From NCBI GenBank assembly GCA_937918905.1, contig CAKZSH010000028.1, positions 59,139 to 123,138 on the forward strand: a stretch of 64,000 nt of DNA, read 5' to 3'. The notes beneath the pieces are model-generated. The model saw only the letters and a program-made list of their open reading frames with translations. It did no database searches and was not told where the DNA came from. Both the position numbers and the translations under genes were made by a program. This document shows positions 1,023-62,211 of the stretch, piece by piece. The stretch's first letter is position 1. Every line of letters starts with the position of its first letter. The stretch comes from an uncultured Saprospiraceae bacterium. GTDB lineage: Bacteria > Bacteroidota > Bacteroidia > Chitinophagales > Saprospiraceae.

Positions 1023-1168
1023 GACGGTAGACGGTCGCTTCGCTTGACGGTGGACGGTGGACGGTGGACGGACGCTGCGCTTGACGGACCGAATAATTTT
1101 GAATTCACGTTATTTCGATCCGTCCAGCAAAGCGGCCGTCTAACGTCGAGCGAAGCGACCGTCAACCG
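1023..1168. repeat. Long imperfect hairpin, GC-rich, with arms made of tandem heptamers (tggacgg x3)
   Basis: gacggtcgcttcgct...(tggacgg)3...gacggaccgaataa pairs with ttatttcgatccgtcc...agcgaagcgaccgtc. It starts 2 nt after the stop codon at 1019-1021. Confidence 0.8.
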
Positions 1169-1175
1169 AAAAAAA

Positions 1176-1202
1176 AACGCCCCGCAAAAATGCGAGGCGT
1201 TT
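1176..1202. terminator. Bidirectional intrinsic terminator between convergent genes
   Basis: Stem aacgccccgca / tgcgaggcgtt with loop aaaa. An A-run precedes it and T-rich sequence follows. Confidence 0.7.
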
Positions 1203-1242
1203 GTAAGTTTTGGTTATGTTATTGCGATGGGTTCATAAGGAA

Positions 1243-3159
1243 TTATTCCTTACCACCATCCAATTCATCTTGATATACTTTCAATTCATCGAACTTACCA
1301 GAAGCAGCTAATTTAGCTTGTTTTGGCCAAGTTGTTGGATTGTGCATTTTGTAACGAGGACCAGCATTTTCTAAGATTTCTTTTAACTCATCAGCATGAG
1401 TGTCAGCAAGATCATCCCAGTTTTTGATGCCAGCAGCATGTAATAATTTTTCAATCTTTGGTCCGATACCTTCTACAATTTGAAGATACTCCGATCGGTA
1501 ACCTGCAGTTCCATTACCTTTTTTAAGTACTGCTTTTTCTCTTACCATTTCCACAGATTTTACGGACTGTGTATTGGTATTTAAAGTAACAGGTACTTCT
1601 TTGATAACTTGTACTTCTTTAATGACTTCTACCTCTTTGATGACTTCCACAGGTACTTCCTTAATCACTTCTACTTCTTTAAAGACGGTAACTTCAACAG
1701 GTACTTCTTTGATGACCTCCACTTTTACCTCTTTGATGACTTCCACTTCTTTGATGACTTCAACAGGCACCTCTTTAATTACTTCTTTAATGACTTCTAC
1801 CTCTTTAATCACTTCAACAGGAATCTGTTTAATCATTTCAACTGGCTTGACCACTTCTATCTCTTTGATCACTTCAACAGGAACTTCCTTAATGATTTCT
1901 ACTTCTTTGATCACTTCTACTTCTTTAATCACTTCAACGGGTACTTCCTTAATTATCTCCACTTCTTTAATCACTTCAACTTCCACTTCTTTTTCTACTA
2001 CAACGGGAACTTCTTTAATGACTTCCACTTCTTTGATTACCTCAACTTCTCTAATCATTTCAACAGGAACTTCTTTGATGACTTCTACTTGAACCTCTTT
2101 AATGACCTCTACTTCTTTAATCACTTCAACAGGAACTTCCTTGATAACTTCAACATTTCTCACTACATCCACTTCTTTAATTACCTCCACTTCTACTTCT
2201 TTAATTACCTCTACTTCTTTGATAACTTCCACAGGTACTTCCACATTTCTGATGACATCCACTTCTTTAATGACCTCCACAGGTACTTCCACATTTCTGA
2301 TGACCTCTACTTCTTTGATTACTTCCACAGGCACTTCTTTAATCACCTCTACTTCTTTGATTACTTCTACAGGTACCTCTTTGATTACTTCAACTTCCAC
2401 TTCTTTAATCACCTCTACTTCTTTAATGATAGGCACTTCTTTTGTGGTCATAACTTCTTTGATCACCTCCACTTCCTGAACAATAGGCACTTCTTTAATC
2501 ACCTCTACCTCCTTCATTATTTCTATCTCTTTGATTATTTCTACAGGCACTTCTTTAATTACCTCTACTTCTTTAATTACTTCAACCTCCTTAATTACTT
2601 CCACAGGCACTTCTTTGATTACCTCTACTTCAACAATTTTTTCAACAACAACTTCTCTCACCATATCAACAGATTTGAGACTTTGCATGCTATTGTTGAT
2701 TTCCACAGGTACTTCTTTGATGACCTCCACTTCTTTTACAATTTCTACCACTCTTTCCACAGGTACTTCTTTGATTACCTCTATTTCTTTAATCACTTCC
2801 ACAGGTACCTCTTTAATTACTTCAATTTCCACAGGTACTTCTTTGATTACCTCTATTTCTCTTTCAATAACTTCAGGTTGAATGTTTTTTGCGGTTTGAT
2901 AGTCTAATTCCAATGAAGCAAATCTATTTTGAAGACCTGCATATTCATTTTCAGTTTTCTCTTTTGCTACAAGAGCATTTTGTAAATCTCCTTGGACTGT
3001 ACCAATTTTGGCATCTCTTTCACTTAATAGCCCAGTATACTTTGATGAAATGGAAGAACTTCCAAACCATCGGCCAAGTAACCAAGACAAAAACCCAAAT
3101 AATAATATAGGGAGCCAACAAAGGAAATTAAAAAGCAATAATGAACTTAAAAACGTCAT
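1243..3159 (-). CDS. Membrane-anchored repeat protein: N-terminal TM helix, short coiled coil, dozens of EVIKEVPVEV-type repeats, C-terminal helix-hairpin-helix (H3TH, COG3743-like) module
   Basis: 638-aa ORF. N-terminus is LLLFNFLCWLPILLFGFLSWLLG. The C-terminus EGIGPKIEKLLHAAGIKNWDDLA...TTWPKQAKLAASGKFDELKVYQDELDGG matches the HhH tail I recall from COG3743-type proteins. Confidence 0.75.
   Translation of the reverse strand: MTFLSSLLLFNFLCWLPILLFGFLSWLLGRWFGSSSISSKYTGLLSERDAKIGTVQGDLQNALVAKEKTENEYAGLQNRFASLELDYQTAKNIQPEVIEREIEVIKEVPVEIEVIKEVPVEVIKEIEVIKEVPVERVVEIVKEVEVIKEVPVEINNSMQSLKSVDMVREVVVEKIVEVEVIKEVPVEVIKEVEVIKEVEVIKEVPVEIIKEIEIMKEVEVIKEVPIVQEVEVIKEVMTTKEVPIIKEVEVIKEVEVEVIKEVPVEVIKEVEVIKEVPVEVIKEVEVIRNVEVPVEVIKEVDVIRNVEVPVEVIKEVEVIKEVEVEVIKEVDVVRNVEVIKEVPVEVIKEVEVIKEVQVEVIKEVPVEMIREVEVIKEVEVIKEVPVVVEKEVEVEVIKEVEIIKEVPVEVIKEVEVIKEVEIIKEVPVEVIKEIEVVKPVEMIKQIPVEVIKEVEVIKEVIKEVPVEVIKEVEVIKEVKVEVIKEVPVEVTVFKEVEVIKEVPVEVIKEVEVIKEVQVIKEVPVTLNTNTQSVKSVEMVREKAVLKKGNGTAGYRSEYLQIVEGIGPKIEKLLHAAGIKNWDDLADTHADELKEILENAGPRYKMHNPTTWPKQAKLAASGKFDELKVYQDELDGGKE
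1555..2877 (-). repeat. In-frame tandem coding repeats (15/30-nt periodicity) encoding (E/V)VIKEVPVEV units
   Basis: Repeated gaagt(a/g)at(c/t)aaagaagt(a/g)cctgt(g/t)gaa-type DNA units on the minus strand. They generate several spurious antisense ORFs. Confidence 0.9.
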
Positions 3160-3634
3160 AGTATTTTAATCTTTTACTAAATGGTTAAAAAAATGGATTT
3201 GTTTGGGTAATATGTTACCATATTACCAATTAGATAAAGTTTTTAGGGTTAATTTTAACTGAAAGGAATTAGTATTTTGTATATGTAGAAGTGTTCAGAC
3301 CGAAAGATAGTGAAAAAAGTTAAATTCAAAAAAAAATCTGATATTTATTTGTTTTCTTATTTATTGAGGAATACCGCTTTATGTAACATTTTTTTTTATA
3401 TACATTTTTTTTATAATTATAAATGCCTATCATAATTAAAACTCTGATATTAATTTTTTTTTCTAGAATTCAAAAGATTTAATTAAATTTACGGTCGGTG
3501 AGATTTTTTAGAGGACAAAAATCATAAAAGTTCTCTTCTTTCTCAACTCTTATTAAACCAATCCTACAACTACATCCAAACTTATTTTCAAACAAAACCT
3601 GGAATGACCTTCCAGTCAAAATTTACCTTTTCTT

Positions 3635-4483: not shown

Positions 4484-4554
4484 TTTTGATAGAGAATTTC
4501 AAATTTGAATAAATCAAATCGAGATTCTTCATATAAATCGTTAATAAAAAAAAA

Positions 4555-4586
4555 ACGCCTTGGCTAGATTAGTCAAGGCGTTTTTT
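4555..4586 (+). terminator. Intrinsic terminator
   Basis: Stem acgccttg / caaggcgt with an 11-nt loop, followed by TTTTTT. Confidence 0.7.
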
Positions 4587-5569: not shown

Positions 5570-5653
5570 TAAATACGTCTTTTTACGTTGGACGGTTTAT
5601 GTTTTACGGTCTACGGTTTTCGATAACTGTAAAACGTGAAAAGCAAAATATTT

Positions 5654-5850
5654 TTAACAATATTCGTAATTATTCAGTATTGGGTGTACACGAGTCAAGG
5701 TTTGACTTCTCAAGTCAAGCCTTGACTTATAAGAACATCAATTATAAGTCAGGCTTTGACTTATAAGAACGTCAATTATAAGTCAAAGCCTGACTTTTTA
5801 AGTCAGACCTTGACTCGTGTACAGCCAATGTTGAATAGTTAACAATATTC
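5654..5850. repeat. Copy A of the AAGTCAR-N3-YTGACTT / TGTACACGAG inverted-repeat element (core 5685-5823), MITE-like
   Basis: Five 17-bp palindromic units lie between the termini tgtacacgagtcaagg and ccttgactcgtgtaca. The outer arms attattcagtattgg / ccaatgttgaatag also pair. A 12-bp direct repeat ttaacaatattc sits at both ends (5654-5665 and 5839-5850). Confidence 0.85.
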
Positions 5851-6129
5851 ATATGAAAAATTAAGTTAATAGGTTGTAAGTATTATTTTTTTTTGAAATA
5901 TATTTCTTTTATCTCGTTTTTTTTTGAATATGTTCGATTAAAATATTTACTTTTGCTTTAGAACTAATATACCAACGAAACTTTCCTTTCACCAACCTTC
6001 TAAATCCTTCCTTATTTTATTTGAATCCTGACTTGTCTTTATACAAGACATAATACCTTTGTCAAAAGTTATTTATGCTAATCCATATTTGGCTTTTTCG
6101 CAAATTTATTTTTAAAACTAATTTTAAAT

Positions 6130-6738: not shown

Positions 6739-6759
6739 AGGGAATGTACCTGTCAAGAT

Positions 6760-6972
6760 GTATGAGTGTATTTATGTATATGTTGTCGAAATAATAGTGA
6801 AAGCGTTTTTATGATCCTTAGCCATCAGATTTATATCCGACGGTCACAGAACAAAATACTACTGACCCGCTTTTTTGAGAGTCTCAAAATTATCAATAGT
6901 CTTTTGAATACACTCCATACCTCATAAATAATCATAATTATTTCGACAACATATACACCTACACACTCATAC
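6760..6972. repeat. Inverted repeat with ~36-bp arms and a ~140-nt loop
   Basis: gtatgagtgtatttatgtatatgttgtcgaaataat pairs with attatttcgacaacatatacacctacacactcatac. Confidence 0.8.
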
Positions 6973-6990
6973 ACCTTAACACATTTTTCT

Positions 6991-7025: not shown

Positions 7026-7850
7026 ATGGATTATTTCAAATTTGAATTCCAAACCACTTCACAAAATGCCGAAATGCTCATTGCATTGCTTGGCGAACTT
7101 CCCTTCGATGTTTTTGAGGAAACCGATACTGGTCTTGATGCATTTATTCCTACTGAAAAATGTACAGAAACAGTAGAAAATGAGGTGCTTCAAATAAAAA
7201 ATCTTTTCGATTTTTCCTACCAAAAAGTATTTATTAAATATCAAAACTGGAATGCTGTTTGGGAATCAAATTTCCAACCCATTGTAGTCCGAGATTTTTG
7301 TGGAATCCGAGCTGATTTTCACGATCCTATTCCAAATATTCAACATGAAATTATCATTAATCCTCAAATGGCTTTTGGTACGGGGCATCATGAAACCACT
7401 TGGATGATGATGGATATGATGCAAAATATTGATTTTGTTGACAAAAATGTCTTTGATTATGGTTGTGGAACTGGAATTTTAGCCATTTTAGCGAGTCAAT
7501 TAGGTGCAAAAAAAATTGATGCGTTGGATATAGAATTGCCATCGTATGAAAACACTTTGGAAAATTCCCGTATAAATAACATCCAAAACGTCAATTCTAT
7601 TCATGGAACGCTTGAAAAGACTAAGGATTTTGAATATGACCTCATTTTAGCAAACATTAATCGGCACGTAATTTTAGACAGCTTCTCGACGTTAAATAAT
7701 ATGTTACCTCTTCAAGGTATTTTGTTGATTTCTGGAATCTTAAAATCAGATGAAAATTTAGTTTTGGAAGCTGCTCAACAAAATGGTTTTCATAACGAAA
7801 AAATAAACCGAAAAAATAATTGGATTTGCATTCAATTAACTAAAAAATAA
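7026..7850 (+). CDS. prmA: Ribosomal protein L11 methyltransferase
   Basis: Contains PrmA motifs FGTGHHETT and DYGCGTGILAI (SAM-binding GxGxG). The start is moved to the in-frame ATG at 7026. Confidence 0.9.
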   Translation: MDYFKFEFQTTSQNAEMLIALLGELPFDVFEETDTGLDAFIPTEKCTETVENEVLQIKNLFDFSYQKVFIKYQNWNAVWESNFQPIVVRDFCGIRADFHDPIPNIQHEIIINPQMAFGTGHHETTWMMMDMMQNIDFVDKNVFDYGCGTGILAILASQLGAKKIDALDIELPSYENTLENSRINNIQNVNSIHGTLEKTKDFEYDLILANINRHVILDSFSTLNNMLPLQGILLISGILKSDENLVLEAAQQNGFHNEKINRKNNWICIQLTKK

Positions 7851-7934
7851 CGGTGAACTGTGAACTGGTAACTTCGAATAAATTGGAATTGACCATAATT
7901 TCGAAGTTAACAGTTCAACGTTCACAGTTCACCG
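7851..7934. repeat. Hairpin built from (g/t)tgaac(t/g) heptamers, starting directly after the prmA stop codon
   Basis: cggtgaactgtgaactggtaacttcgaa pairs with ttcgaagttaacagttcaacgttcacagttcaccg, followed by an A-run. Confidence 0.85.
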
Positions 7935-7956
7935 TTAAAAAAAAAATTCCGATCTT

Positions 7957-10900
7957 ATGATTAAAAAAATACTATCCTCAGTTTTTGTAATTTTATTGTT
8001 ATGTGGCACACTAAATGCCCAACAAGACAATATTTTCCCAGAGAATAGAGCTGATTTTCTCAAACAATTCAAGGAGTTTTTTAATAAAAGTAAAAGCAAG
8101 GATATGGAGTCTTTTTTCAAAGACTTTGAATCTTATTTTCATAATAGTATTTCAGAGGAAGAGTTTCCATTACTTAGAGATGCATGTAATGAGATGCTAG
8201 GAAAAAAAATGTCTGCAAATCCATATTTCAAAAAATACCTTTCTGTTGTTTTAGCAATAAAAAAGAATGATGGAGTAAGTGCGAAACTTAATGAATGGAA
8301 CGAGGTTACGGTTGCAATGGTCAAGGCAATAAAAAATAGAAAACTAAAGCCTTTCAAAAATTACCTCGATTTTTCAGAATCATTTTTTGGACAAAATGCT
8401 TTACGATATTCAAAGCAAGGGATTAAATGGTACTACGAATCTGATAAATATAATTTAAAACTAGAAGATGGAGTTCCTTTAGTAGATTTTGAAAAAATGA
8501 ACTTGATAGGAACAAGAGGGAAAGATTCGATTGTGATACAAGAGACTGTCGGACAATATTATCCCACACAATTAAAATGGAAAGGTACTGGAGGAAAAGT
8601 AACATGGGAAAAGCTAGATCAACCTGACGTGTATTGTTTGTTGAATGATTATGAAATAGAGACTAAAAAAAGTTTATACAAAGCGAAAAATGTTCGATTA
8701 GTTTATCCTGAATTATTTCCAGGAGAGGAAATTGATGGTGATTTTGAAGATAAAGTTGTGGTTAGAAATAAATCAAGAGAGGGTTCTTATCCAAGATTTC
8801 TTTCCTATGAAAAAATTTTAAAAGTAAATAATATTGGAGAAGGCATCGAATACCAAGGAGGTTTTCGATTGGAAGGAAATACGGTATATGGTTATGGTAG
8901 TAAGGATACCCCTTCGGAAATTATCGTAAAAAGTGGGGGCAAAACTTCTTTCCGAGCCACCTCACAATTGTTTAAAATACGGAAGAGTGAACGTATCACA
9001 GGAGAACAAGTAAAAGTAGTGTTATATTTTGATCAGGATTCCATTTACCATCCATCGGTTAATCTCAAATATGATATAATAACTAAAGATTTGAATTTAG
9101 CAAGGGGAAAAAGAGGAAGTGATAGAAATCCATATTTTAACTCCTACCATCAAGTAAACATTAACGCTGATAAAATTGATTGGAACTTAGAAAGTGATAG
9201 TCTTTTGATTGGGAAAAAACAATTTGGATTAGGAAATGGGAAGAATGAAGTTACTTTTGAAAGTTTAAAATATTATGACGAAAAATATATCCTTAGGGTT
9301 CAAAATATTTCGGATGTCAATCCTATTGTAACTTTAAAAGTTTTGTCAGAGGAACTAGAACGAAGAGATATTGAAGCTCCTGAATTTGCACAAAAATTAA
9401 ACCCTCGTTTTGATACTAAAAATATTGAAAGTTTATTGTACGAGTTAGTTTCCAATGGTTTTGTGGATTATGATCAAGATGAGGAAATCGTCTATGTCAA
9501 AGATAAAATTTTTCATTATGCAGATGCAATGGCAAAGAAAACAGATTACGATGCCATCAAATTAGTCTCGACTGCTGAGAAAGATGCCAATGCTGTTTTT
9601 TCTATAAAAGATAAGTCACTTCAAGCCAATTCAGTTACCCAATTGGAGATTAACAAAAAACAAAAAGTGGCGATCAAACCAGCCAACAAATCCATCACTA
9701 TGCAAAAAAATAGAGATATGGATTTTGGAGGAAAAATCTTTGCAGGATTTAGTGTCTTGGAAGGAAAAGATTTCCACTTTGATTATGAGAAATATTTGAT
9801 GACTTTGGATTCTGTTCGGTATTTTGATTTATTTGTGCCAACTGAAGCCAAGGATGAAAATGGAGATCCCGTTTCTATTTCTATTGCTTCAAGAATTGAA
9901 CATACGAATGGAGTACTTTTAGTTGACTCTCCAAATAATAAAGCGGGTGCAGAGGATATTGATATTTTTCCTTCTTTTAATACCAAAGATTACTCCTACG
10001 TATATTACGATAATCGAAATATACATGATGGTGTTTACAAAAGGGATTCCTTTTATTTCAAATTAGATAAGTTTAGTTTTAACAGCCTTGATAATTTTAC
10101 CAAAGACGATATCCGATTTAAAGGAAATCTAGTCTCTGCTGATGTCTTTCCTGATTTTAAAGAAACATTACTCTTACAAGAAGAGGATCAATCTTTAGGT
10201 TTTACAACTCAAACTCCTTCGGCAGGTTTTCCTACCTACCAAGCCAAAGGAAATTACAAAGGAGAGATTCATATGAGCAACAAAGGGATGTTGGGAAAAG
10301 GAACCATTAATTATTTGACCTCTTCAACGGACTCTGAAGATATTTTATTTAAACCCAAACAAATGACTGCAACAGCAAGGTTGTTTGATTTGAGAGAAGA
10401 TCGACAAGGAGCTGTTGAAGTTCCACAGGCGCATGGTGAGGATATTCGGATTGACTGGAAACCCTACCAAGATAGTATGTATATTTTTACAAAGGAAAAT
10501 GCTTTTGAGTTGTTTAAAGAAAATGATCATAACATCACAGGAGGTTTGATTTTGACGCCAAATGGTTTGCGTGGAAATGGAAATATGAAATGGACAAAAG
10601 GTAGCCTAAAGTCAACATTAATAAAGTTTGGAGCATTCTCTGCCAATGCTGATACTTCCCGACTTCAAATTAATGCAGTAGGAACAAGTGCATTAGCATT
10701 GGATACTGATAATGTAAATAGTAAGTTGGATTTTGATAAACAAATGGGATATGTAGAAGCTAATGAAAAAGGACATTTTACTGAATTACCATTTAATCAA
10801 TATAAAACTTCGTTGACTACGTTTGATTGGGATATGAAGAATGATGCAATTACTTTTAAAACTGATCCAGGGCAAGTAGGAGCATTTGTTGCGACTGGAG

Positions 10901-12477
10901 ATAATCGAGATTCTTTACATTTTGAAGGAGAAAATGCTTTTTATGATTTGAAATCCAATGAGTTGAAAATAAGTGGAGTGAAGTCGATCAATACCTGTGA
11001 TGCGATAGTTTACACAGATGATGGAAAAGTGGAAATTTTCCAAGCAGGTAAAATGTCTACCTTAGAAAACTGTAAAATAGTGTGTGATACGATTTCAAAA
11101 AATCATGTTATTAATCGTGCTACTGTTGATATTGTTGGTAAAAAAGAATATACCGCAAAAGGTTTTTATGAATACAATGTCAAAGGTCGAAAACAAGAAA
11201 TTCCATTTGAAAATATTGTAGGAGGACGTTATGGTAAAGGAAAACGGAGTGAGAAAAAAACACGAACAACTGCCAAAGGAGAAGTGGATGAAACGAATAA
11301 TTTTTACATTGATTTAAAAACTGAGTTTCGTGGAGAGATCACCTTAACAGGAGATAAAAAACCATTAAATTTTAAAGGATTTGCTCGATTAGATACTGAA
11401 AAGTTACCACAGAGAGAATGGTTTTCTATTGATAGTGAAGGAGATAAAAATGATTTGATAATTGGATACAATACTCCAAAAAATTATGATGGTTATAAAT
11501 TGTACACAGGATTATATTTGAGTAAAGAATCTGCTCAACTTTACCCCCGTATTTTCCAACCGAAATATTTTAGAAAAGACCGTCCAATACTGGAAGTGAC
11601 AGGATTATTTAAATTAGATGAACCTAAAGATGAATTTATTTTTGGAGATACTTTAAAAATAAAATCCGATGTCAAGCAGGGGAACAAAATTACTTTTAGC
11701 AATAAGACTGGAGGCTTTAGAGCCGAAGGAAAACTGAATATTGGAGATCAGTTAAAATATATGTCAGTAGAGGCTGCAGGGAATGCTAGAACCGTGTATC
11801 CTGTTCCTCAAGATTCTGTTGCCCTTGGGCCATTTGGTTATGACGTGGAGGCTGATATGATGGCTGGGATAAAATCATTTATTCCCAAAAATATGTTGGA
11901 TTTTATGATTCAAGATATTAAAAGCAGTAGTTTTGATACGAGAGGAGTCGATTTTACGGATAATGATTTTTATGAAAAAGCGCTCTCAGAATTTATAAAA
12001 GATTCCAAACTACTTCATAATACCTTAACAAGAATGAAGACGGAATACCGTCTCAATCTTCCCAAAAAAGTGAATCCTTATACTTTTTTGTTTGGGAAAA
12101 TGGCTATGAAATGGGATCCTGATTATCAATCATTTGTCAATACAAATGACCAAGTAGGAGTTATCAGTATCAATGGTGAAGAGACAAATGTGACGCTTAA
12201 ATGTTATATCGAATTTAAGATGCCTTCCAATGGCGATGATCGATTGTACATGTATATCAAATCTCCAAGTGATACTTATTATTTCTTTGGTTACAAACAA
12301 GGTATCATGAATATTGTATCTAATAATACTAAGTTTAACGATTTGGTGATTAACATGAAAAAGAAGGAAAGAGTCTTAAAAATGGAGGATGGCGAAACTG
12401 TTGAATTTCAATATGTCGAACCTTCCACAGCAGAACGATTCGTGAGAAGAGCACAGACTGCGATACGGAAGAAGTAA
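7957..12477 (+). CDS. Very large secreted protein of unknown function (1506 aa)
   Basis: Uninterrupted ORF with a signal peptide (MIKKILSSVFVILLLCGTLNAQ). No family recognised. Confidence 0.8.
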   Translation: MIKKILSSVFVILLLCGTLNAQQDNIFPENRADFLKQFKEFFNKSKSKDMESFFKDFESYFHNSISEEEFPLLRDACNEMLGKKMSANPYFKKYLSVVLAIKKNDGVSAKLNEWNEVTVAMVKAIKNRKLKPFKNYLDFSESFFGQNALRYSKQGIKWYYESDKYNLKLEDGVPLVDFEKMNLIGTRGKDSIVIQETVGQYYPTQLKWKGTGGKVTWEKLDQPDVYCLLNDYEIETKKSLYKAKNVRLVYPELFPGEEIDGDFEDKVVVRNKSREGSYPRFLSYEKILKVNNIGEGIEYQGGFRLEGNTVYGYGSKDTPSEIIVKSGGKTSFRATSQLFKIRKSERITGEQVKVVLYFDQDSIYHPSVNLKYDIITKDLNLARGKRGSDRNPYFNSYHQVNINADKIDWNLESDSLLIGKKQFGLGNGKNEVTFESLKYYDEKYILRVQNISDVNPIVTLKVLSEELERRDIEAPEFAQKLNPRFDTKNIESLLYELVSNGFVDYDQDEEIVYVKDKIFHYADAMAKKTDYDAIKLVSTAEKDANAVFSIKDKSLQANSVTQLEINKKQKVAIKPANKSITMQKNRDMDFGGKIFAGFSVLEGKDFHFDYEKYLMTLDSVRYFDLFVPTEAKDENGDPVSISIASRIEHTNGVLLVDSPNNKAGAEDIDIFPSFNTKDYSYVYYDNRNIHDGVYKRDSFYFKLDKFSFNSLDNFTKDDIRFKGNLVSADVFPDFKETLLLQEEDQSLGFTTQTPSAGFPTYQAKGNYKGEIHMSNKGMLGKGTINYLTSSTDSEDILFKPKQMTATARLFDLREDRQGAVEVPQAHGEDIRIDWKPYQDSMYIFTKENAFELFKENDHNITGGLILTPNGLRGNGNMKWTKGSLKSTLIKFGAFSANADTSRLQINAVGTSALALDTDNVNSKLDFDKQMGYVEANEKGHFTELPFNQYKTSLTTFDWDMKNDAITFKTDPGQVGAFVATGDNRDSLHFEGENAFYDLKSNELKISGVKSINTCDAIVYTDDGKVEIFQAGKMSTLENCKIVCDTISKNHVINRATVDIVGKKEYTAKGFYEYNVKGRKQEIPFENIVGGRYGKGKRSEKKTRTTAKGEVDETNNFYIDLKTEFRGEITLTGDKKPLNFKGFARLDTEKLPQREWFSIDSEGDKNDLIIGYNTPKNYDGYKLYTGLYLSKESAQLYPRIFQPKYFRKDRPILEVTGLFKLDEPKDEFIFGDTLKIKSDVKQGNKITFSNKTGGFRAEGKLNIGDQLKYMSVEAAGNARTVYPVPQDSVALGPFGYDVEADMMAGIKSFIPKNMLDFMIQDIKSSSFDTRGVDFTDNDFYEKALSEFIKDSKLLHNTLTRMKTEYRLNLPKKVNPYTFLFGKMAMKWDPDYQSFVNTNDQVGVISINGEETNVTLKCYIEFKMPSNGDDRLYMYIKSPSDTYYFFGYKQGIMNIVSNNTKFNDLVINMKKKERVLKMEDGETVEFQYVEPSTAERFVRRAQTAIRKK

Positions 12478-12550: not shown

Positions 12551-12636
12551 AGTCACAAGTTGAATCTTTAAATGAGTATAGAGTAGGAGAATCTTGAAGA
12601 TTAAAAGAATTTAAATAACAAATTCAACTTGTGACT
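12551..12636. repeat. Hairpin with a 15-bp perfect stem and a 56-nt loop
   Basis: agtcacaagttgaat pairs with attcaacttgtgact. Confidence 0.7.
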
Positions 12637-12669
12637 AGATTTTTCAAATGGATTGCAACTTGAATTAAA

Positions 12670-12772
12670 CGCTTCGCTTCCCTTCCCTATTGATTAATCA
12701 GGTTATATTGTGATCGAAAACATTTGCCTTCTATTCGTTTTCACGTTAACCTAATTAACCAATAGCGAAGCG
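12670..12772. repeat. Imperfect hairpin whose arm sequence recurs at 59497-59525
   Basis: cgcttcgct...ctattgattaatcaggtta pairs with taacctaattaaccaatagcgaagcg. Confidence 0.75.
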
Positions 12773-12827
12773 AACCAATTAACTATTCAACTTTTCAAAC
12801 AATTCCAAACCAATTAACGAACATACT

Positions 12828-15110: not shown

Positions 15111-15153
15111 AAAAAACACGTAATCTCGACTCATCGAAATTACGTGTTTTTTT
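15111..15153 (-). terminator. Intrinsic terminator (symmetric A/T runs) after the 15177-16496 gene
   Basis: aaaaaacacgtaat...attacgtgttttttt, a 13-14 bp stem flanked by A- and T-runs. Confidence 0.75.
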
Positions 15154-15176: not shown

Positions 15177-16496
15177 TTAAAAATCAGTTTTTTGTTTTCC
15201 AGAATCACGATCAGCAGTCAATGTCATAACAACTGCTGCAGTACAAAAAACTGGACTTGTAATACAATGATGTCCAGACCAGCTACCATCTTCATTGATG
15301 ATGCTTCCTAGATTCTGTTTCATTTTGCTATGCCATTTATTCCAACTTTTAGAATCTTGGCTCATCACTAAAGCTTCACTTGTCATCATGTAACTGAGGT
15401 ATTCTTCACCTCCATTATTTCCAAAACCAGACAACACTTTATCACTTTTTAAATTCTCAGTAGCAGCCCGATTGACTTGATAAGTAAAGAGTATATCATT
15501 AGCCTCTTTTTCGCTATATCCGTTATTGGCAAGAGCTCGTTTAGTTGCTGAGTAGTCACTTGATTTGCTTTCTTTGATTTCAGCAGCATCCATTATCGCT
15601 TGAACTTTTTTGGCGTCGAGAGCAGTTGCACGTTGTGTACTTGAGTAGGCGTATAAATCAATTCCTGCAGCTTTTTCAGTAGCCGCCTTTCCAGATTTCG
15701 CATCTACATTTTTTTGCTGGTAAGCTCTTGATAAAGCTAAAACGTTTTTATCGATTTCGATGTCATTAGCTTCTGCCATTTCCAAAGCATTATTGGCCAT
15801 TGCTGAACTTAAAACTCTCGCCCAACCTCGGTCATTCCAACTACCATCTGCCAATTGAGTGTTTTCTAATTTTCTTAAACATTTTGCAATTGCTTTGTCA
15901 ATTTTGATTTGCAATTCATCATCACCGTCAGCCAATGGAGAGATGCGAATTAAAAATTGAGCAGCTAATGACACGTCAATATTTTGACCTAATTTTTGTT
16001 GAGGTTGTGTTCCTACCTGCTTGGTAATATTGGCATTATTTTCAGGAGCACCTTCGACTGTTTTCAGCATGTAGTTTAATGCTTTTCGAAGATTACCTTT
16101 ATACTGTCCATCCTGCAAGGTATTTCCTACTCGCATCAAAGCTAAACCAACAAAAGAAGTGGTAGCTGGATCAACATTGACTTGACGTGGGTCACGGATT
16201 TGTTGTGAAGCATGTTGTCCTGAACCGTATCCGCCATTTCGAGCCTGAGCTTTTGCTAACCAGTTCATACTTTTTTTCAAATAGGTAGGCAATGGTTTTA
16301 CGTGGTCATCTTTCATTGGATCAAAACTATCCGATTTACGAACGATAGATTTCACAGGTGTTCCATCATTTACATTGATAATTGGAGCATCGTCTTTGAA
16401 AGTATTACTTGGAGTATGATTGGAATTAAAATAAAAAAAGAGGGTACCTCCCAACACTATAAAAAGTGCTAATAAGGACATTTTAATAGTTTTCAT
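15177..16496 (-). CDS. Secreted protein with prenyltransferase / terpene-cyclase-like toroid repeats
   Basis: Signal/TM N-terminus. Repeats ARNGGYGSG, DGSWNDRGW, FGNNGGEEY and DGSWSGHHC. Confidence 0.6.
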   Translation of the reverse strand: MKTIKMSLLALFIVLGGTLFFYFNSNHTPSNTFKDDAPIINVNDGTPVKSIVRKSDSFDPMKDDHVKPLPTYLKKSMNWLAKAQARNGGYGSGQHASQQIRDPRQVNVDPATTSFVGLALMRVGNTLQDGQYKGNLRKALNYMLKTVEGAPENNANITKQVGTQPQQKLGQNIDVSLAAQFLIRISPLADGDDELQIKIDKAIAKCLRKLENTQLADGSWNDRGWARVLSSAMANNALEMAEANDIEIDKNVLALSRAYQQKNVDAKSGKAATEKAAGIDLYAYSSTQRATALDAKKVQAIMDAAEIKESKSSDYSATKRALANNGYSEKEANDILFTYQVNRAATENLKSDKVLSGFGNNGGEEYLSYMMTSEALVMSQDSKSWNKWHSKMKQNLGSIINEDGSWSGHHCITSPVFCTAAVVMTLTADRDSGKQKTDF

Positions 16497-45922: not shown

Positions 45923-45950
45923 CAATTTTATCAACTAATCAAAAATTTTT

Positions 45951-46557: not shown

Positions 46558-46588
46558 GATGGTATTTTTTATTAGTGGTGGTTTAATT

Positions 46589-47241: not shown

Positions 47242-47269
47242 ATGCTTAAAGGGTTTTTTGTTAGAGAAA

Positions 47270-47361: not shown

Positions 47362-47910
47362 CGAGCTCTTATCTACTTCTTTTTCTATAGTAGTGCCTAT
47401 CTTTTGTAGATGTTCAGCACCGCTCATTTCTATTTTATCAGCGAGTTGTGCGATTTTGTTCAGGTCAAGTCTTCCGAGGAAACTAACCATTACAAATTCA
47501 TCTTCACTACCTACCAAGAGAAATAATTCTTCGATGACGTTATTGGTTTCTTTGATCCAAAAGTTGACATTGTCACCTTTGTCTCTAACGGTAAGCAATA
47601 CTTCATAGCCATCGTTGACATTGATTAATTTTCGAGCTTCTTTGTAATATTGCTTAGGATTTTCTTCAGTAACCAGTACTCTTAAGCCTTTGATGTCTTT
47701 AGCAACATCCATGATGATTTGGGCTTCTTCATCTTTAAGTTCATCAATATCTATTTTGGAAATCATGTTGAACATTTTACCGCTAACGAAAACGACAGTA
47801 AAATTTTCATCATCTAAATATCGGTCAAAATAGGTAGAGATGGCGTCATTTTGAGCGTGGGCTGATATGCTTAGTAAGAGCACCACTATTATTGTATTTA
47901 AATATTTCAT
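47356..47910 (-). CDS. DUF4252 protein (paralog 1)
   Basis: YFDRYLDDENFTVVFVSGKMFNMISKI...LRVLVTE...FWIKE. Confidence 0.7.
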   Translation of the reverse strand: MKYLNTIIVVLLLSISAHAQNDAISTYFDRYLDDENFTVVFVSGKMFNMISKIDIDELKDEEAQIIMDVAKDIKGLRVLVTEENPKQYYKEARKLINVNDGYEVLLTVRDKGDNVNFWIKETNNVIEELFLLVGSEDEFVMVSFLGRLDLNKIAQLADKIEMSGAEHLQKIGTTIEKEVDKSSN

Positions 47911-48018
47911 TGTTTTAGAATTTTAATGTAATTGACTTGATGTAAAATCAAGTGGTGAAAAATGGTCTTGATAAAATATCATTGCTAGCAAAGGGTGTTT
48001 TGTTCGTATTTATTCTTT

Positions 48019-48534
48019 TTATTTAAACGTTCGTTTTTTGGCGGCTTTGATTTCAATTAAGCCTTTTGATGCTTTTGAAGTACCTTTTTTCATTTTTCCA
48101 GAGAGCAATAAAAGTGCTGCTTTGGTGGCTTCGTAGGCTTCTTTCTCATCGGTAATTTCATAGGGAGCAAATCGGTCATCAGTTTTTGCGACGGTATTGT
48201 TTTCAGTAGTTTTGTTGACTTGATTGAAAATAAAAATACTTCCTAACAATACAATTCCAACTGCTGCAATTGTTCTAATCGAACGAGCCCAATTCAAAGT
48301 CCTTACCTTAGCTTGAGGTTCATTCTTAATTTGCTCTAACAAACGTTTTTCAAAATCATCACTAATCATCACATCTTGTTCTTCTTTGAAAAACTGGAAC
48401 AATGGCTGAAACTGTTGGTGCTCAGGAGCGACCTTACCATTGTTAAAATATTGTTTGAGTTTTTCCTCCTCTTGGAGAGAAGTTTCGCCTTTCCAATATT
48501 TATCGAGTAGTTGAGTGATGTTATTAAATTCCAT
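48019..48534 (-). CDS. Putative anti-sigma factor (single-pass membrane protein)
   Basis: It overlaps the ECF sigma gene by 11 nt and has a central TM helix (IAAVGIVLLGSIFIF). The call rests on position. Confidence 0.55.
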   Translation of the reverse strand: MEFNNITQLLDKYWKGETSLQEEEKLKQYFNNGKVAPEHQQFQPLFQFFKEEQDVMISDDFEKRLLEQIKNEPQAKVRTLNWARSIRTIAAVGIVLLGSIFIFNQVNKTTENNTVAKTDDRFAPYEITDEKEAYEATKAALLLLSGKMKKGTSKASKGLIEIKAAKKRTFK

Positions 48535-49033
48535 AATTTTCTGAATTGATTAATTGACTTTTAATGTGTTTCCGTGCTCTAAAAAGATACACTTTGACTT
48601 GGCTCATTGGGATTTGTAATTGTTCCTCGATCTCCTTGTAACTCAACCCTTCGATGTCGCGCATATGCATGACTTCCTTTTGCTTATTTGGAAGTGCGTT
48701 GATCATATTTTTAATGCGTTGCATGGTGTCTTGTGATTCAGTTACTTGATGAGGTGTTCGCTGGTCGGAAGTGACATCAAATCCTTCAGGAATGATCCCC
48801 ATTTTATAATGTTTATTTCGAGTTTTGTCTATGGAAAGATTTTTTGTAATTCGAATACACCAAGCTTCAAGGTTGGAATATTCAGCAAGTTTATCTCTTT
48901 GTTTCCACAATTTAATCATCACTTCTTGAATTACATCTTCCGCCTCTGCTGGGTTGCCCACGATGCGTAATGCAAAGCGGTACAGCTTATTTTTAAGGGG
49001 CAGGACTTCCGATGTGAATTGTTTTATTTCCAT
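48524..49033 (-). CDS. ECF-type RNA polymerase sigma-70 factor
   Basis: Region 2 (AEDVIQEVMIKLW...LEAWCIRITKNLSIDKTR) and region 4 (RDIEGLSYKEIEEQLQIPMSQVKVYLFRARKHI). Confidence 0.9.
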   Translation of the reverse strand: MEIKQFTSEVLPLKNKLYRFALRIVGNPAEAEDVIQEVMIKLWKQRDKLAEYSNLEAWCIRITKNLSIDKTRNKHYKMGIIPEGFDVTSDQRTPHQVTESQDTMQRIKNMINALPNKQKEVMHMRDIEGLSYKEIEEQLQIPMSQVKVYLFRARKHIKSQLINSENYGI

Positions 49034-50593: not shown

Positions 50594-50631
50594 AAAAAAA
50601 AAATGTCCTTCCGTAAAACTACGAAAGGACA
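50594..50631 (-). terminator. Intrinsic terminator after the SRPBCC gene
   Basis: On the minus strand, tgtcctttcgta gttt tacggaaggaca is followed by T10. Confidence 0.75.
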
Positions 50632-50661
50632 TTTTTATTTTCACAAGAAATCTTAAATTAT

Positions 50662-52607: not shown

Positions 52608-52641
52608 AAGCATCTCGAATTAGTTCGGGGTGCTTTTTTTT
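52608..52641 (+). terminator. Intrinsic terminator after rpoD
   Basis: aagcatctcgaa ttag ttcggggtgctt (with G-U pairs) followed by T8. Confidence 0.75.
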
Positions 52642-54330: not shown

Positions 54331-54338
54331 ATTGAAAT

Positions 54339-54716
54339 GGTTATTAAGTTATTGGTTATTGAGTTATTTCGAATACTGTGAAAAGCAAGGTTATTCGAAA
54401 TAAGTTATTAACTGACGTTGCACAAAAATATATTGAGTATTGAACGCTGAGACGCTGAGACACGGAGTTTGTCGAATACTGTATTGAGGCCGCAGAGGAT
54501 TTTTATTAAAATAAAAATGAGCTGAGATGCAGAGATATTCAAATTGTTCTTGATAAAAGGCTTTGTGAACTTTGCTTATATTTTTCGCAGAAAAATACTC
54601 TGCGGCTTCAATACAGTATTCGACGAACTCCGTGTCTCAGCGTCTCAGCGTTCAATACTCAATATATTTTTTGCGAAACATGAGTTATTAACTCAATAAC
54701 CAATAACTCAATAACC
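54339..54716. repeat. Composite ~380-bp nested hairpin: outer gttattN-word arms, a local hairpin, and a ~75-80-bp near-perfect inner stem
   Basis: Outer arms: ggttattaagttattggttattgagtta pairs with taactcaataaccaataactcaataacc. Inner stem: 54416-54497 pairs with 54598-54679 and contains (gctgagac)x2. Local hairpin: ttatttcgaata...tattcgaaataa. Confidence 0.9.
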
Positions 54717-54819
54717 AAAATAAAATCATACAAGAGAACAATTGTATCCAACAAGAAATTTAACCTCTTAAAGATCCCATTGTTCTCTTTTTGTTTTTTA
54801 CCAACAATATATTTACAAA

Positions 54820-58649: not shown

Positions 58650-58673
58650 TTTAACTACTTGATTTTATAAAAA

Positions 58674-58716
58674 ATAGAGCCACTTAAATTTTGTTTTAAG
58701 TGGCTCTATTTTTTTG
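58674..58716 (+). terminator. Strong intrinsic terminator
   Basis: Perfect 15-bp stem atagagccacttaaa / tttaagtggctctat followed by T6. Confidence 0.85.
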
Positions 58717-58764: not shown

Positions 58765-59478
58765 ATGAGTAACATAAGATTAGCATCTACCATTTTGCTA
58801 GCAAGAGATTACAATGGAGAATTGGAAGTTTTGTTATTAAAAAGAAATAAGGCATTGGCTTTTGCAGGTGGCTTGTGGGTTTTCCCAGGTGGTAAAATTG
58901 AACCTGAAGAACTAGCAGCTAGCGAAGACGAACTAGCTGCTGCAAAACTAGCTGCAGTTCGAGAAACGAAGGAAGAGGCTGATTTAGACATTGATATAGA
59001 TGGTCTTATTTTTTTTAGACATTGGACAACTCCAGTTATTGAACCTCGAAGGTACGCCACCTATTTTTTCTTTGGTGGAGTAAATGATGTTTCTACAAAA
59101 GTTACAGTAGATGATAGTGAAATTAAAAAACACCTTTGGGTCAATCCGCAAAAAGCAATCGATAAATTGAAAGAAGGTGGATTAGCAATGATGCCACCTA
59201 CATTGATGAGTTTGCAATTGATAAGTAAATGTAAATCAGTCAAAGAAGTTGAACAACTATTGAGTCAAGCGGAACCCATTTTTATTCTACCTACTTTACA
59301 AATGAACGATGGTAAAATGGTTTGCATGTACAAAGGGGATGCGGGTTATCCTACCGCAAGTCCAAATACGATTGGAGCAAGACATCGTTTGGTTTTAGAT
59401 TTTAAAACTGGCGATTTTACTTTTGAATATAATGGTTGTGATGAGGTGTTACCTGTGAATGGTGGGATGCATATATGA
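58765..59478 (+). CDS. NUDIX hydrolase
   Basis: Nudix box GGKIEPEE...AAVRETKEEADL, with an insertion between the G and RE parts. Confidence 0.8.
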   Translation: MSNIRLASTILLARDYNGELEVLLLKRNKALAFAGGLWVFPGGKIEPEELAASEDELAAAKLAAVRETKEEADLDIDIDGLIFFRHWTTPVIEPRRYATYFFFGGVNDVSTKVTVDDSEIKKHLWVNPQKAIDKLKEGGLAMMPPTLMSLQLISKCKSVKEVEQLLSQAEPIFILPTLQMNDGKMVCMYKGDAGYPTASPNTIGARHRLVLDFKTGDFTFEYNGCDEVLPVNGGMHI

Positions 59479-59745
59479 AAAGTTGATTAGTTAATTATGT
59501 GCTTCGCTATTAGTTAATTAGGTTATCGTAAGTTTTAAAATTTTGTTACAAATGCGAATCAATGCATCAACAGTATTCGACAATCATAAAAATCATAATT
59601 ATCATATAATCAATCCGTGTTAAAATAATTTTGATTTGGATTTTTTAACGCGGATTGATTATAATAACTGTGATTTTTATGATTGTCCTTAATTCGTAGT
59701 TCTAGACCTAATCAACTATTTAACTGATTCACTAATCAACTTTTG
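59478..59745. repeat. Nested double hairpin; the left arm overlaps the stop codon
   Basis: Outer arms: aaaagttgattagttaat...tattagttaattaggt pairs with acctaatcaactatttaactgattcactaatcaactttt. Inner arms: gacaatcataaaaatcataattatcatataatcaatccgtgttaaaa pairs with ttttaacgcggattgattataataactgtgatttttatgattgtc. Confidence 0.85.
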
Positions 59746-59783
59746 AAAATTGCTGATTAGTTACTAAAAATAAAAAACAAAGA

Positions 59784-60755: not shown

Positions 60756-60811
60756 TTTTTTAGGAATGGTTTTATGAGATTTAAGATTTGCTGTACCTAT
60801 TCAGCATTGGC

Positions 60812-60915
60812 TGTATACGAGTCAAGGTCTGACTTTTTAAGTCAGGCTTTGACTTATGTTGATGTTCTTATAAGTCAAGGCTTGACTTGAAAAGTCAAAC
60901 CTTGACTTGTGTATA
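60812..60915. repeat. Copy D of the AAGTCAR-N3-YTGACTT element (shortest, 104 bp)
   Basis: Termini tgtatacgagtcaaggtctgactt and aagtcaaaccttgacttgtgtata, with four palindromic units. Confidence 0.85.
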
Positions 60916-61070
60916 GCGATCGTCGGATGTAAATCCGACTCTCTCGGACCTTTGCAAAACAAATTATTCGAAATAACTCAATAACCCAATAACTCATTAA
61001 CCAATTTCAAGATTTAATTTTTTTCAAAATTATACCCATCTTTTCCACTCTTTTATCGTATAATAGCTCT

Positions 61071-62018
61071 ATGAAAATTACTAAAGCCATCATAACTGCA
61101 GCAGCACGAGGAGGTCGCCTATATCCAGTAGGCGATACTGTGCAAAAAGCAATGTTACCACTTGCCGATGTGGACGGAGTTCACAAACCAATTATCCAAA
61201 TTATTGCTGAAGAAGCCTTTGCATCAGGTATTGAAGAAATCTGTTTGATCGTAGCACCAGGTGACGAAAAACGATATGTGGAAGCTTTTACAACCTTGAA
61301 AAATAATTTGACCCATTCGTATGGAAGTGTGGATTGGGCAAAAGGTCAAGCAGAAAAAATCACTAATCTTTTGGATAGATTACAGTTTGTAGTTCAAGAA
61401 GAAATGCTTGGATTTGGACATGCTGTGATGTGCGGTCAAAAGTTTGTAGGAGATGATGCATTTTTATTGTTATTGGGAGATCATCTTTATCGATCGGGTT
61501 TGGACGAAATGAATTGTGCCTCTCAATTAGTGGATTTAGCCAAAAAGGAAACTTGTTCCGTTTCGGCAGTCAATGCTACTAACGAGCACCTCATTGGTCA
61601 TTATGGAACGTTAACTGGGAAACATGTGAACACTTATAATGGAGTGTATGAAATAGAAAAAATTATTGAAAAGCCATCCATCAGTCAGGCGGAATTGGAA
61701 CTTCAAACGGCTGGGATGCGAGTAGGTCATTATCTTTGTTTTTTTGGGATGCATGTCCTTGAAGCACCTATTTTTTCTTTTCTCGAACAACAAATGAAAA
61801 AAAATAAAAAAGGAACTGATCTTCAGTTAACTCCTGCATTGCAACAATTGGCTCAGCATCAAAAATATTTAGCAAAAGAGGTCACAGGAAGGAGATTCAA
61901 TTTAGGAACTCGTTTTGGTTGGTTGGAAGCTCAACTTGCATTTGGTCAGGATGGGCCTTATAGTGAAGAATTGTTGTCGAGTATCATTGAACAATTAGCA
62001 TTTAAAAAAATAAAATAA
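61071..62018 (+). CDS. Sugar-1-phosphate nucleotidyltransferase (UTP-glucose-1-phosphate uridylyltransferase-like)
   Basis: N-terminal AIITAAARGGRLYPVGDTVQKAMLPL resembles the GalU G-x-G-T-R-x-L-P / K-x-M-L-P signature. LLLGDH is also present. Confidence 0.65.
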   Translation: MKITKAIITAAARGGRLYPVGDTVQKAMLPLADVDGVHKPIIQIIAEEAFASGIEEICLIVAPGDEKRYVEAFTTLKNNLTHSYGSVDWAKGQAEKITNLLDRLQFVVQEEMLGFGHAVMCGQKFVGDDAFLLLLGDHLYRSGLDEMNCASQLVDLAKKETCSVSAVNATNEHLIGHYGTLTGKHVNTYNGVYEIEKIIEKPSISQAELELQTAGMRVGHYLCFFGMHVLEAPIFSFLEQQMKKNKKGTDLQLTPALQQLAQHQKYLAKEVTGRRFNLGTRFGWLEAQLAFGQDGPYSEELLSSIIEQLAFKKIK

Positions 62019-62038
62019 AGAATAGGATTCAAAATTAT

Positions 62039-62211
62039 GGATAAATGATGTTGAGAAAAATATTTTTTTGAGATTCCACCCCCCCAACCCCCGCCAGCGG
62101 GGGAGAATGAACGTGTTTCTATCGCGTTAAAAGGACGCGTACTATCTCCCCCGCTGGCGGGGGTTGGGGGGTGGAATCTCAAAAAAATATTTTTCTCAAC
62201 ATCATTTATCC
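62039..62211. repeat. Near-perfect ~67-bp-stem hairpin with an extremely GC-rich core (C7AAC5GCCAGCG5)
   Basis: ggataaatgatgttgagaaaaatatttttttgagattccacccccccaacccccgccagcgggggaga pairs with its reverse complement at 62145-62211, with one C/G indel. The loop is 38 nt. Confidence 0.95.

Follow-up and report, generated by a model that had tools for sequence, protein, structure and literature searches.

Intergenic hairpins in a Saprospiraceae genome segment as a probable mixture of palindromic repeat families, one of them of the REP/REPIN type

What are the long hairpins that stand between the genes of an uncultured Saprospiraceae bacterium? The question is raised by a 64,000-nt stretch of contig CAKZSH010000028.1 (GenBank assembly GCA_937918905.1, positions 59,139 to 123,138 of the forward strand), hereafter the window. 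It has a guanine-plus-cytosine (GC) content of 34% and about 50 genes, and its gene content is typical of Bacteroidota, with TonB-dependent receptors, a Por secretion tail and a sigma/anti-sigma operon that includes three genes of the DUF4252 type. A first-pass annotation had described nearly every gene junction as filled by a mostly locus-specific hairpin built from tandem words of about 7 nt. We consider it probable that the hairpins are a mixture of palindromic repeats: one family of repetitive extragenic palindromes (REPs) and of the hairpins formed by REP doublets (REPINs), together with foldback families resembling REPINs or miniature inverted-repeat transposable elements (MITEs), the arms of which were diversified by heptamer slippage and which accumulate at stop codons. 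The intergenic DNA would then be densely colonised by several small non-coding palindromic families, selfish or non-autonomous elements whose action would be on the level of DNA.

The ungapped inverted-repeat score of each spacer of at least 40 nt (n = 41) was compared with 100 dinucleotide-preserving shuffles, none of which matched the observed score in 25 of the 41 spacers. A scan of the whole window (inverted-repeat score >=16, loop <=200 nt) returned 25 strong inverted repeats. All 25 lay outside open reading frames (ORFs; p ~1e-19), the non-ORF DNA amounting to 11.2 kb (17.5%), and their density was 2.2 long inverted repeats per kb of non-coding DNA. They fold into near-perfect stems with arms of 20-87 nt, and ordinary A-run/stem/T-run terminators account for three of them (15111, 50594, 58669). 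An inverted repeat was present at every position listed in the first-pass annotation; the hairpins are real, but they occupy about 60% of the spacers rather than nearly every junction.

The hairpins are also reproduced independently. Same-species contigs from two assemblies (ENA, Logan) are 99.6-99.95% identical to the window and span 12 hairpins, which therefore are not assembly artefacts, even though chimeric assemblies can yield palindromes. Integron attC sites were considered as well, since they are variable imperfect palindromes lying right after the stops of gene cassettes. Here, however, the neighbours are housekeeping genes in both orientations, syntenic with relatives that have no hairpins, and the termini at 7849, 26871 and 47270, as judged by eye, do not resemble the core sites RYYYAAC/GTTRRRY. 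The attC reading was rejected on these grounds, and an origin of the hairpins as attC sites or artefacts is scarcely credible. Short-read contigs of the same population (L002, L203, L205-L207) mostly stop within palindromes or repeats (45970, 54462, 54495, 60878, 60962, 62068, 62075, 22844 and 26902), so that the elements fragment assemblies of the window organism.

By all-against-all blastn of the spacers, five or more families were found to be scattered over the 64 kb:

Family A: inverted doublets at 21456/21669, 24091/24160, 38981/39032 and 41470/41513, and a further locus at 32870
Family B: 5646-5862, 16790-16881, 42729-42942 and 60797-60917
Family C: 54332/54689, linked with 60965
Family D: 59476, linked with 12743 (segment 12743-12797 is common to 59476-59529)
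Family E: 7906, linked with 45946

The family A core had 16 matches (<=3 mismatches) against 0.6 expected by chance, and the family B core 23 against 0.3. A sensitive arm-by-arm comparison linked the 37195 hairpin to three 'CACATAG' palindromes in L011, a relative of a different genus; the arms are 81-84% identical, while the metC-like proteins of the two organisms share only 72% identity. Blastn of the window families in the relatives gave matches for family A and for one GACGGTG array only. With at least five families repeated in the window and one more recurring in another genus, the description of the hairpins as mostly locus-specific did not hold. For the remaining hairpins uniqueness cannot be shown, because 64 kb is a small sample of a several-megabase genome.

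Family A can be assigned most closely. Its unit, GTAACCGCCAAATTYATTTGG, is an imperfect palindrome of 25-30 nt with a 5' GTAA foot, and GTAACCGCCAAATTYATTTGGCTGGTTGTA forms a CCAAAT..ATTTGG stem with a bulge, a short imperfect palindrome as in REPs. The window holds nine units at five loci. All core matches lie in spacers, except for one weak match with three mismatches inside an ORF (33146-33162). The doublets (arm complementarity 82-97%) correspond to REPINs, because at four of the five loci they fold as inverted pairs into one hairpin. A metagenome collection scanned with the 17-nt family A core returned 120 loci; the full unit, including the GTAA foot, was present in 12 of them, and the other 108 were chance matches that served as a control. 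In one contig, L130, a 220-aa ORF has exact core matches on either side, 12 in all and arranged as tandem and inverted arrays, the unit there being GTAACCGCCAAATTTATTTGGCG. The protein matched the NCBIfam model REP_Tyr_transpos (E 1e-21, 77.1 bits, just below the 80-bit cutoff) and Pfam Y1_Tnp (23.2 bits, cutoff 23), its best PDB match was E. coli TnpAREP (4ER8), and it contains the motifs NHAH, WQ and YILENP. A gene for a REP-associated tyrosine transposase (RAYT) with cognate REPs on its flanks is the classic arrangement (PMC3116915, PMC6006769). In Bacteroidetes, RAYT subclasses 2.4 and 2.6 have cognate REPs, and non-canonical hairpin feet occur in some RAYT classes (PMC6006769). Since its unit flanks a RAYT gene on both sides in L130, family A is, as judged from sequence, one bona fide REP/REPIN family, and the proposal of the first-pass annotation that the hairpins are footprints of HUH/Y1 transposition gains support for this family. 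Its copies were presumably made in trans by a RAYT (an HUH/Y1 enzyme) acting on single-stranded hairpin DNA. The contigs with true family A units had 0.41 long inverted repeats per kb, compared with 0.39 in the window and 0.06 in the 108 chance-match contigs, and they carry heptamer-armed hairpins too, e.g., (GGTTGAG)n. In L130, the RAYT gene and REP arrays (1770-3180) lie directly downstream of a tRNA-Met gene, and the REP units belong to tandem repeats of 43-44-nt period that also comprise a conserved inter-REP segment.

The other families were characterised through their distribution. Families B-E, the CACATAG palindromes and the GGTTGAT-type elements are small and non-coding, have terminal inverted repeats and occur in multiple dispersed copies, as MITEs do. 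The metC-like protein of the window is 72-79% identical to proteins from metagenome-assembled genomes (MAGs) of Saprospiraceae/Lewinellaceae, and three of these relatives (L010, L011, L050) have a density of long inverted repeats similar to that of the window. Four others (L003, L004, L012, L023) are almost devoid of them, and Flavobacteriaceae and Bacillus loci retrieved by the same protein query have about zero. This patchy, lineage-specific distribution argues for invading repeats rather than a conserved regulatory device. Raised densities (3-5 long intergenic inverted repeats per 13-21 kb locus) were also seen in L071, L075 and L065 (Desulfonema magnum, Desulfococcaceae), which are unrelated filamentous sulfate reducers; most other taxa retrieved with the same protein as these loci had no long intergenic inverted repeats.

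Individual junctions show gain and loss. The metC-like/metX-like spacer is 124-136 nt long and hairpin-bearing in the window, L005 and L050, compared with only 11-43 nt in L003, L004 and L009-L011; the spacer that holds the 243-nt palindrome 21456-21698 in the window is about 35 nt long in L003. Between L010 and L011, coding DNA is 93-94% identical, yet the blastn alignment breaks at every hairpin spacer. Some homologous hairpins of the two differ in heptamer number, as for (GATGAAT)n in one arm (5.0 copies in L010, 8.9 in L011), and unrelated palindromes were found at the same junction. At one site, outer arms of GTTATNN heptamers are held in common around cores of about 140 nt that are completely different. 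A 269-nt insertion (15442-15710) is present in L011 only; its boundaries are ambiguous, and no target-site duplication could be read. In these relatives, several families are built around a conserved central hairpin, which stands between mirrored arrays of 7-10-nt words, such as TTCATCCACTCG...CGAGTGGATGAA with GGTTGATRA words and GGTGGTAAC...GTTACCACC with GGTTTGA words, and because some copies are near-identical, loops included, whole elements appear to have been copied. For families B-E, the CACATAG palindromes and the heptamer-armed hairpins, we thus observed multi-copy status, sharing across genomes and insertion or replacement between close relatives. These would be REPIN- or MITE-like foldback elements, copied as whole palindromes, that insert into, replace or nest in each other.

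The arms themselves proved to be partly periodic. Lag-7 identity within arms was 0.350 compared with 0.285 +/- 0.011 in shuffles, and 7 was the best lag in about 8 of 24 arms; the 7-nt periodicity claimed earlier is therefore real but limited to a subset of arms. By Tandem Repeats Finder, the arms contain period-7 arrays that are short (2.7-5 units within the window), and periods of 6, 8 and 9 occurred too. Unit changes were visible within the species: contig L001 is shorter by exactly one CCATAAT unit (32239-32245), and contig L204 has two extra heptamers (14 nt, AACGTTGAACGGTG) at 45964, both inside hairpin arms. Intergenic tandem 7-nt units with 7- and 14-nt indels between strains behave as simple sequence repeats do. 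Heptanucleotides are the commonest long simple sequence repeats in bacteria and are ascribed to polymerase slippage, according to Mrazek 2007 in the summary given by PMC4679880. Per kb, period-7 arrays were about 6.5 times commoner in Saprospiraceae-type than in Flavobacteriaceae-type loci, and the distribution of periods peaked sharply at 7. The brief tandem arrays of the arms, most often made of 7-nt units, lengthen and shorten by replication slippage, as the 7- and 14-nt strain differences show, and this lends each copy its seemingly locus-specific look. The periodicity of many arms and the recurring words GTTATCA, GGTTGAx and nnnGATT could also be taken to mean that the arms are, as the first-pass annotation had envisaged, site arrays for one heptamer-recognising protein, which could be a nucleoid component, an insulator or a regulator that binds RNA. 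We find this very hard to accept. The words of 32 independent arrays have no common consensus, their mean rotation-insensitive distance of 2.97 being barely lower than in shuffled words (3.06 +/- 0.03), which argues against a single binding protein, as do the other periods and the copy-number differences between strains.

Slippage could have contributed more than diversification. Apparently unique heptamer hairpins may have grown in place, first by slippage duplication and then by inverted copying through intramolecular template switching; this would be quasi-palindrome formation or correction, neutral where harmless, in a lineage that tolerates long palindromes. The 7- and 14-nt unit indels, the independent expansion of an array in one arm (8.9 copies in L011 compared with 4.4) and the diversity of heptamer words without a consensus fit such a process, as do the several window hairpins for which no second copy was detectable and the left arm of the 269-nt insertion of L011, which resembles the native flank TTGATGAGGGTTTATG of L010. 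That same insertion, however, is a member of a dispersed family with a conserved central hairpin, many hairpins were copied whole, loops included, and one family is conserved across genera. Furthermore, a swap of cores within conserved arms is easier to explain by element insertion or recombination, and a 64-kb sample is unable to establish any hairpin as unique. We consider growth in place an unlikely explanation. It is also possible, though not likely, that the heptamer-armed hairpins, as distinct from the REP family, are an undescribed class of bacterial foldback elements typical of Saprospiraceae/Lewinellaceae. Such a class would consist of a short conserved central hairpin and mirrored arrays of 7-10-nt words, it would insert beside stop codons or into the centres of existing hairpins to give nested 'Russian doll' palindromes, and its turnover would be faster than the 6-7% divergence of coding DNA. 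It could be mobilised by an HUH/Y1-type enzyme or made by hairpin-templated synthesis.

Where the hairpins lie relative to genes bears on both the mixed-repeat reading and on possible RNA functions. Of 40 hairpins in tandem spacers, 33 lie nearer the stop codon of the preceding gene than the start codon of the following one (p=4e-5), with median distances of about 12 nt to the stop and about 44 nt to the start. Only 1 of the 25 inverted repeats falls in a divergent spacer (p=0.03), although such spacers account for 19% of the non-coding DNA. As noted in the first-pass annotation, several hairpins begin at stop codons, namely those starting within -6 to +5 nt of one at 7849, 21456, 26871, 32835, 34876, 41544, 46651 and 47361. 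Only at 15111, 50594 and 58669 were the 10 nt beyond the stem rich in T. The sigma/anti-sigma/DUF4252 operon has hairpins within it, and one immediately precedes its canonical terminator. The statement that the hairpins are not simply intrinsic terminators is borne out by the missing T-runs, the operon-internal cases and eight separate canonical terminators, some of them directly downstream; canonical terminators indeed adjoin several hairpins (1176, 17865, 45894, 52608). The elements of the window are the following:

1025-1168: nested palindrome with 33-nt outer arms and a (GACGGTG)x3.7 array at 1046-1071; it begins 3 nt past the stop of the 62-1021 ORF and is followed by a canonical bidirectional terminator at ~1170-1205
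4550-4586: canonical bidirectional intrinsic terminator (A-run/GC stem/T-run), separate from the palindromic elements
5646-5862: family B composite palindrome with several AAGTCAAGGYTTGACTT sub-hairpins and the ends GTACACGAGTCAAGG...CCTTGACTCGTGTAC
6751-6981: palindrome with 45-50-nt arms and a loop of ~135 nt, occupying a 257-nt spacer; no second copy seen in the window
7849-7936: family E heptamer hairpin with GTGAACT/GTTCACC arrays, overlapping the TAA stop of a prmA-like gene
12551-12797: two hairpins (~12551-12637 and 12678-12774), the second overlapping the family D segment 12743-12797
16790-16881: degenerate family B units forming a weak inverted repeat in a divergent spacer
17769-17864: long imperfect hairpin, with a canonical terminator next to it at ~17865-17895
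20762-20830: hairpin of GTGATT-type words with the core GTGACTCGT...ACGAGTCAC, which is also found in 46589-46651
21456-21698: inverted family A REP units (21456-21485 and 21669-21698) around a second palindrome (21504-21663), filling a convergent spacer up to 3 nt and 1 nt from the two stop codons
22802-22858: weaker hairpin TTAGCCACAGATTT...AAATCTGCGGCTAA in the metC-like/metX-like spacer
24091-24185: family A REPIN-like doublet, the sole strong inverted repeat within a divergent spacer
26871-26963: hairpin of AATCAA(A)/TTTTGA(T) arrays, overlapping the stop of a TonB-dependent receptor gene and filling a 91-nt convergent spacer
27251-27316: hairpin with the inner stem AGGGAGTAGG...CCTACTCCCT
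28319-28445: hairpin of nnTAAGA heptamer words, weakly related to 47270-47361
32163-32270: hairpin with nnnGATT words in the left arm and (CCATAAT)x4.4 in the right arm
32835-32899: hairpin fused to the family A REP variant GTAACCGCCAATTTCAATTGGCAGG (minus strand), filling a 60-nt convergent spacer
34876-34986: near-perfect palindrome with 44-55-nt arms that starts on a TGA stop; no second copy seen in the window
37195-37302: member of the 'CACATAG' palindrome family, TTTT-CCACATAG-nn-CACATAG...
38981-39067: family A REPIN-like doublet with a 15-nt loop
41470-41544: family A REPIN-like doublet, arms 97% complementary, 11-nt loop, ending 2 nt from a stop codon
42729-42942: family B element with a central GC-rich stem-loop GGCGAAAAAG...TTTTTCGCC
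45946-46043: family E hairpin of AACGTTG/AACGGTG words, flanked by the last DUF4252 gene on one side and by a canonical terminator (45894-45923) on the other
46589-46651: hairpin with a (GTGATTG)x3.6 array and a GTGACTCG core, operon-internal between two DUF4252 genes, its end lying 2 nt from a stop codon
47270-47361: hairpin of TAAGAT-type words with 37-nt arms, overlapping the stop codon of the upstream DUF4252 gene
54332-54718: palindrome of ~387 nt (DNA-fold dG of the spacer -141 kcal/mol) with outer family C word arrays (54332-54375, 54689-54718) and inner arms of 81 nt that are 96% complementary (54424-54504, 54591-54671)
59476-59770: nested palindrome with an outer family D segment (59476-59529), an inner inverted repeat of AATCATAAA words (59579-59687) and an innermost stem
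60797-61010: family B element (60797-60917), then a family C word array (60965-61010)
62034-62216: palindrome with 58-nt arms and a C/G-rich core, beginning 16 nt past the stop codon of a nucleotidyltransferase gene
15111-15152, 50599-50636, 52608-52640 and 58669-58714: further canonical terminators, in addition to those at ~1170-1205, 17865-17895 and 45894-45923

Under the mixed-repeat reading, the pile-up past stop codons and the avoidance of divergent (promoter) spacers and of coding DNA would likely reflect where insertions are tolerated, and existing hairpins may possibly be preferred targets. Several observations weigh against this reading. The foot of family A is GTAA in 9 of 9 window units and in the L130 units, not the canonical GT[AG]G, and its link to a RAYT comes from a different organism (L130, GC 52%). 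The window contains no RAYT or other transposase gene; tblastn with the L130 RAYT over the 2.3 Mb of compared sequence found no second RAYT, and no transposase gene turned up in the loci examined, the dedicated search having been aimed at RAYT only. Neither target-site duplications nor precise empty sites could be defined for any family. For seven or eight window hairpins (1025, 6751, 26871, 34876, 62034 and others), the data compared contained no second copy, and these could have originated locally. About 8 of the 12 hairpin junctions that were scored in L011 carry a hairpin in L010 as well, even when its sequence was replaced, which could indicate selection for having one. The strong proximity to stop codons, finally, is also expected of a functional 3' RNA element; it fits either such a function or accumulation at tolerated sites, as with REPs and MITEs.

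The last two points also speak for the view that the hairpins are RNA elements selected by the host in 3' untranslated regions (UTRs) and between cistrons, the sequence being free to vary as long as pairing is kept. They might serve as U-tract-independent terminators or attenuators, as barriers to 3' exonucleases, as RNase III sites or, within about 15 nt of stops, as modulators of ribosome release. Such roles would agree with the avoidance of divergent spacers and with the small number of canonical terminators, about eight for some 50 genes. There is also a precedent, as E. coli REPs are reported (Liang, Rudd and Deutscher 2015) to stabilise mRNA and to affect translation when located within ~15 nt of a stop codon. 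We nevertheless regard host-selected RNA elements as improbable. No RNA-strand bias was detected, as G·U-type mismatches were not in excess on the transcribed strand (43 sense vs 35 antisense, p=0.43). The stems are not followed by T-runs, hairpins lie upstream of retained canonical terminators and within operons, close relatives do entirely without them at the same junctions or genome-wide, and many belong to multi-copy families, one of them RAYT-linked. Arm complementarity within a copy (0.80-1.00) is only slightly above arm identity between copies (0.68-0.97), and strong concerted evolution of the arms was rejected for that reason. What had been proposed as divergence with maintenance of pairing found no support as a sign of selection; in the alignment of orthologous spacers, which the first-pass annotation had suggested as a check, the hairpin spacers of L010 and L011 failed to align. 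An Rfam scan of the whole window (E<=1) gave only sub-threshold generic miRNA-precursor hairpin models and no family at gathering score. In the mixed-repeat reading, RNA effects would be secondary and not the reason for the existence of the elements. Since these are transcribed as 3'-UTR or inter-cistronic hairpins, they may still influence mRNA decay or stability or ribosome release.

Some further features of the locus were recorded. The minus-strand operon at 46045-49033 encodes three DUF4252 paralogues in addition to an extracytoplasmic function (ECF)-type sigma factor and a putative anti-sigma protein; the paralogues are separated by long hairpins, and a canonical terminator follows the last gene. 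At 47348 and 47355, L204 has C where the window has T, by which two G·T pairs of the 47270-47361 hairpin become G:C, so that the strain variant forms a more perfect stem. The core of the 62034-62216 palindrome (62057-62194) has extended runs of C and of G, CCACCCCCCCAACCCCCGCCAGCGGGGGAG and the complementary stretch, which is unusual at 34% GC. A direct array of about 15 GACGGTG-type heptamers, the word found at 1046-1071 of the window, is present in metagenome contig L153 (6892-6995). A 638-aa ORF (1243-3159, minus strand) is made up almost throughout of tandem repeats that keep the reading frame (periods 18, 24, 42 and 60 nt); its sole match, a weak one to helix-hairpin-helix, lies close to the C-terminus, and it looks like a highly repetitive protein. 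The 1506-aa ORF at 7957-12477 (plus strand) has a signal-like N-terminus and zero Pfam matches.

If the mixed-repeat reading is right, this lineage would be an unusually rich natural laboratory for small palindromic repeats. Target choice, the upkeep of arm pairing and the interplay with slippage in REPIN-like elements would be testable by comparative genomics, because several families coexist, elements are nested, and turnover is visible between genomes that are 93-94% identical in coding sequence. There are practical consequences too: the elements break short-read assemblies of these MAGs, and automatic tools will mis-call them as terminators, small RNAs or miRNA-like hairpins. They are very stable structures a few nucleotides from stop codons and may alter the expression of neighbouring genes.

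How, then, do these hairpins compare with known systems? The first-pass annotation had assigned them to no described element class, an assessment that does not stand, as palindromic repeats of the REP/REPIN type, bacterial interspersed mosaic elements (BIMEs) and MITE-type repeats match most of their features. In REP/REPIN-RAYT systems (enterobacterial BIMEs, Pseudomonas REPINs), as in the window, short imperfect extragenic palindromes lie mostly at gene 3' ends, occur as inverted doublets that fold into long hairpins, and belong to species-specific multi-copy families, several of which may share a genome; the unit flanks a single RAYT gene, as family A does in L130. Variation that looks compensatory between arms is described for REPs and REPINs too (PMC3116915, PMC6006769). 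The present elements differ in their GTAA foot, in a RAYT link that exists for family A only and in another organism, and in arms much longer than those of classical REPINs, up to 40-90 nt; many of the hairpins are, moreover, reversed in layout, with a conserved central hairpin and arms of tandem 7-10-nt words. Bacterial MITEs and related palindromic repeats (Correia/NEMIS, ERIC, RUP, Nezha) are likewise non-coding, multi-copy and intergenic, about 70-400 bp long with terminal inverted repeats, often co-transcribed with their neighbours and polymorphic in insertion between relatives. Here, in contrast, the whole element is a near-perfect palindrome with internally tandem-repetitive arms, and neither a target-site duplication nor a parent insertion sequence with matching ends was found.

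The heptanucleotide repeats of bacteria (long simple sequence repeats, LSSRs; the cyanobacterial short tandemly repeated repetitive sequences, STRR; TAACTGA of Beggiatoaceae, Cyanobacteria and some Bacteroidetes; PMC4679880) share with the window intergenic 7-nt tandem arrays, patchiness across lineages and variable copy number ascribed to slippage. Those arrays are direct, often made of one genome-wide word and often located upstream of start codons, whereas the present arrays, short at 2-9 units, draw on many words and are mirrored between the two arms of hairpins beside stop codons. Rho-independent terminators are likewise inverted repeats just past stop codons; the stems considered here measure 20-87 nt, are often AT-rich, have no T-run, and may be operon-internal or stand beside separate canonical terminators. 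The literature consulted held nothing specific on inverted repeats of Saprospiraceae or on bacterial foldback elements with tandem-repeat arms. In layout, there is a parallel with the eukaryotic Foldback (FB) elements, which have long inverted arms of short tandem repeats and an arm length that varies by copy; they belong to another domain of life and to the kilobase scale, and the likeness is an analogy that implies no homology. Palindromic repeats are a known kind; a variant of them with a conserved central hairpin, mirrored tandem-word arms, nesting and very fast turnover may be undescribed, though this is not likely.

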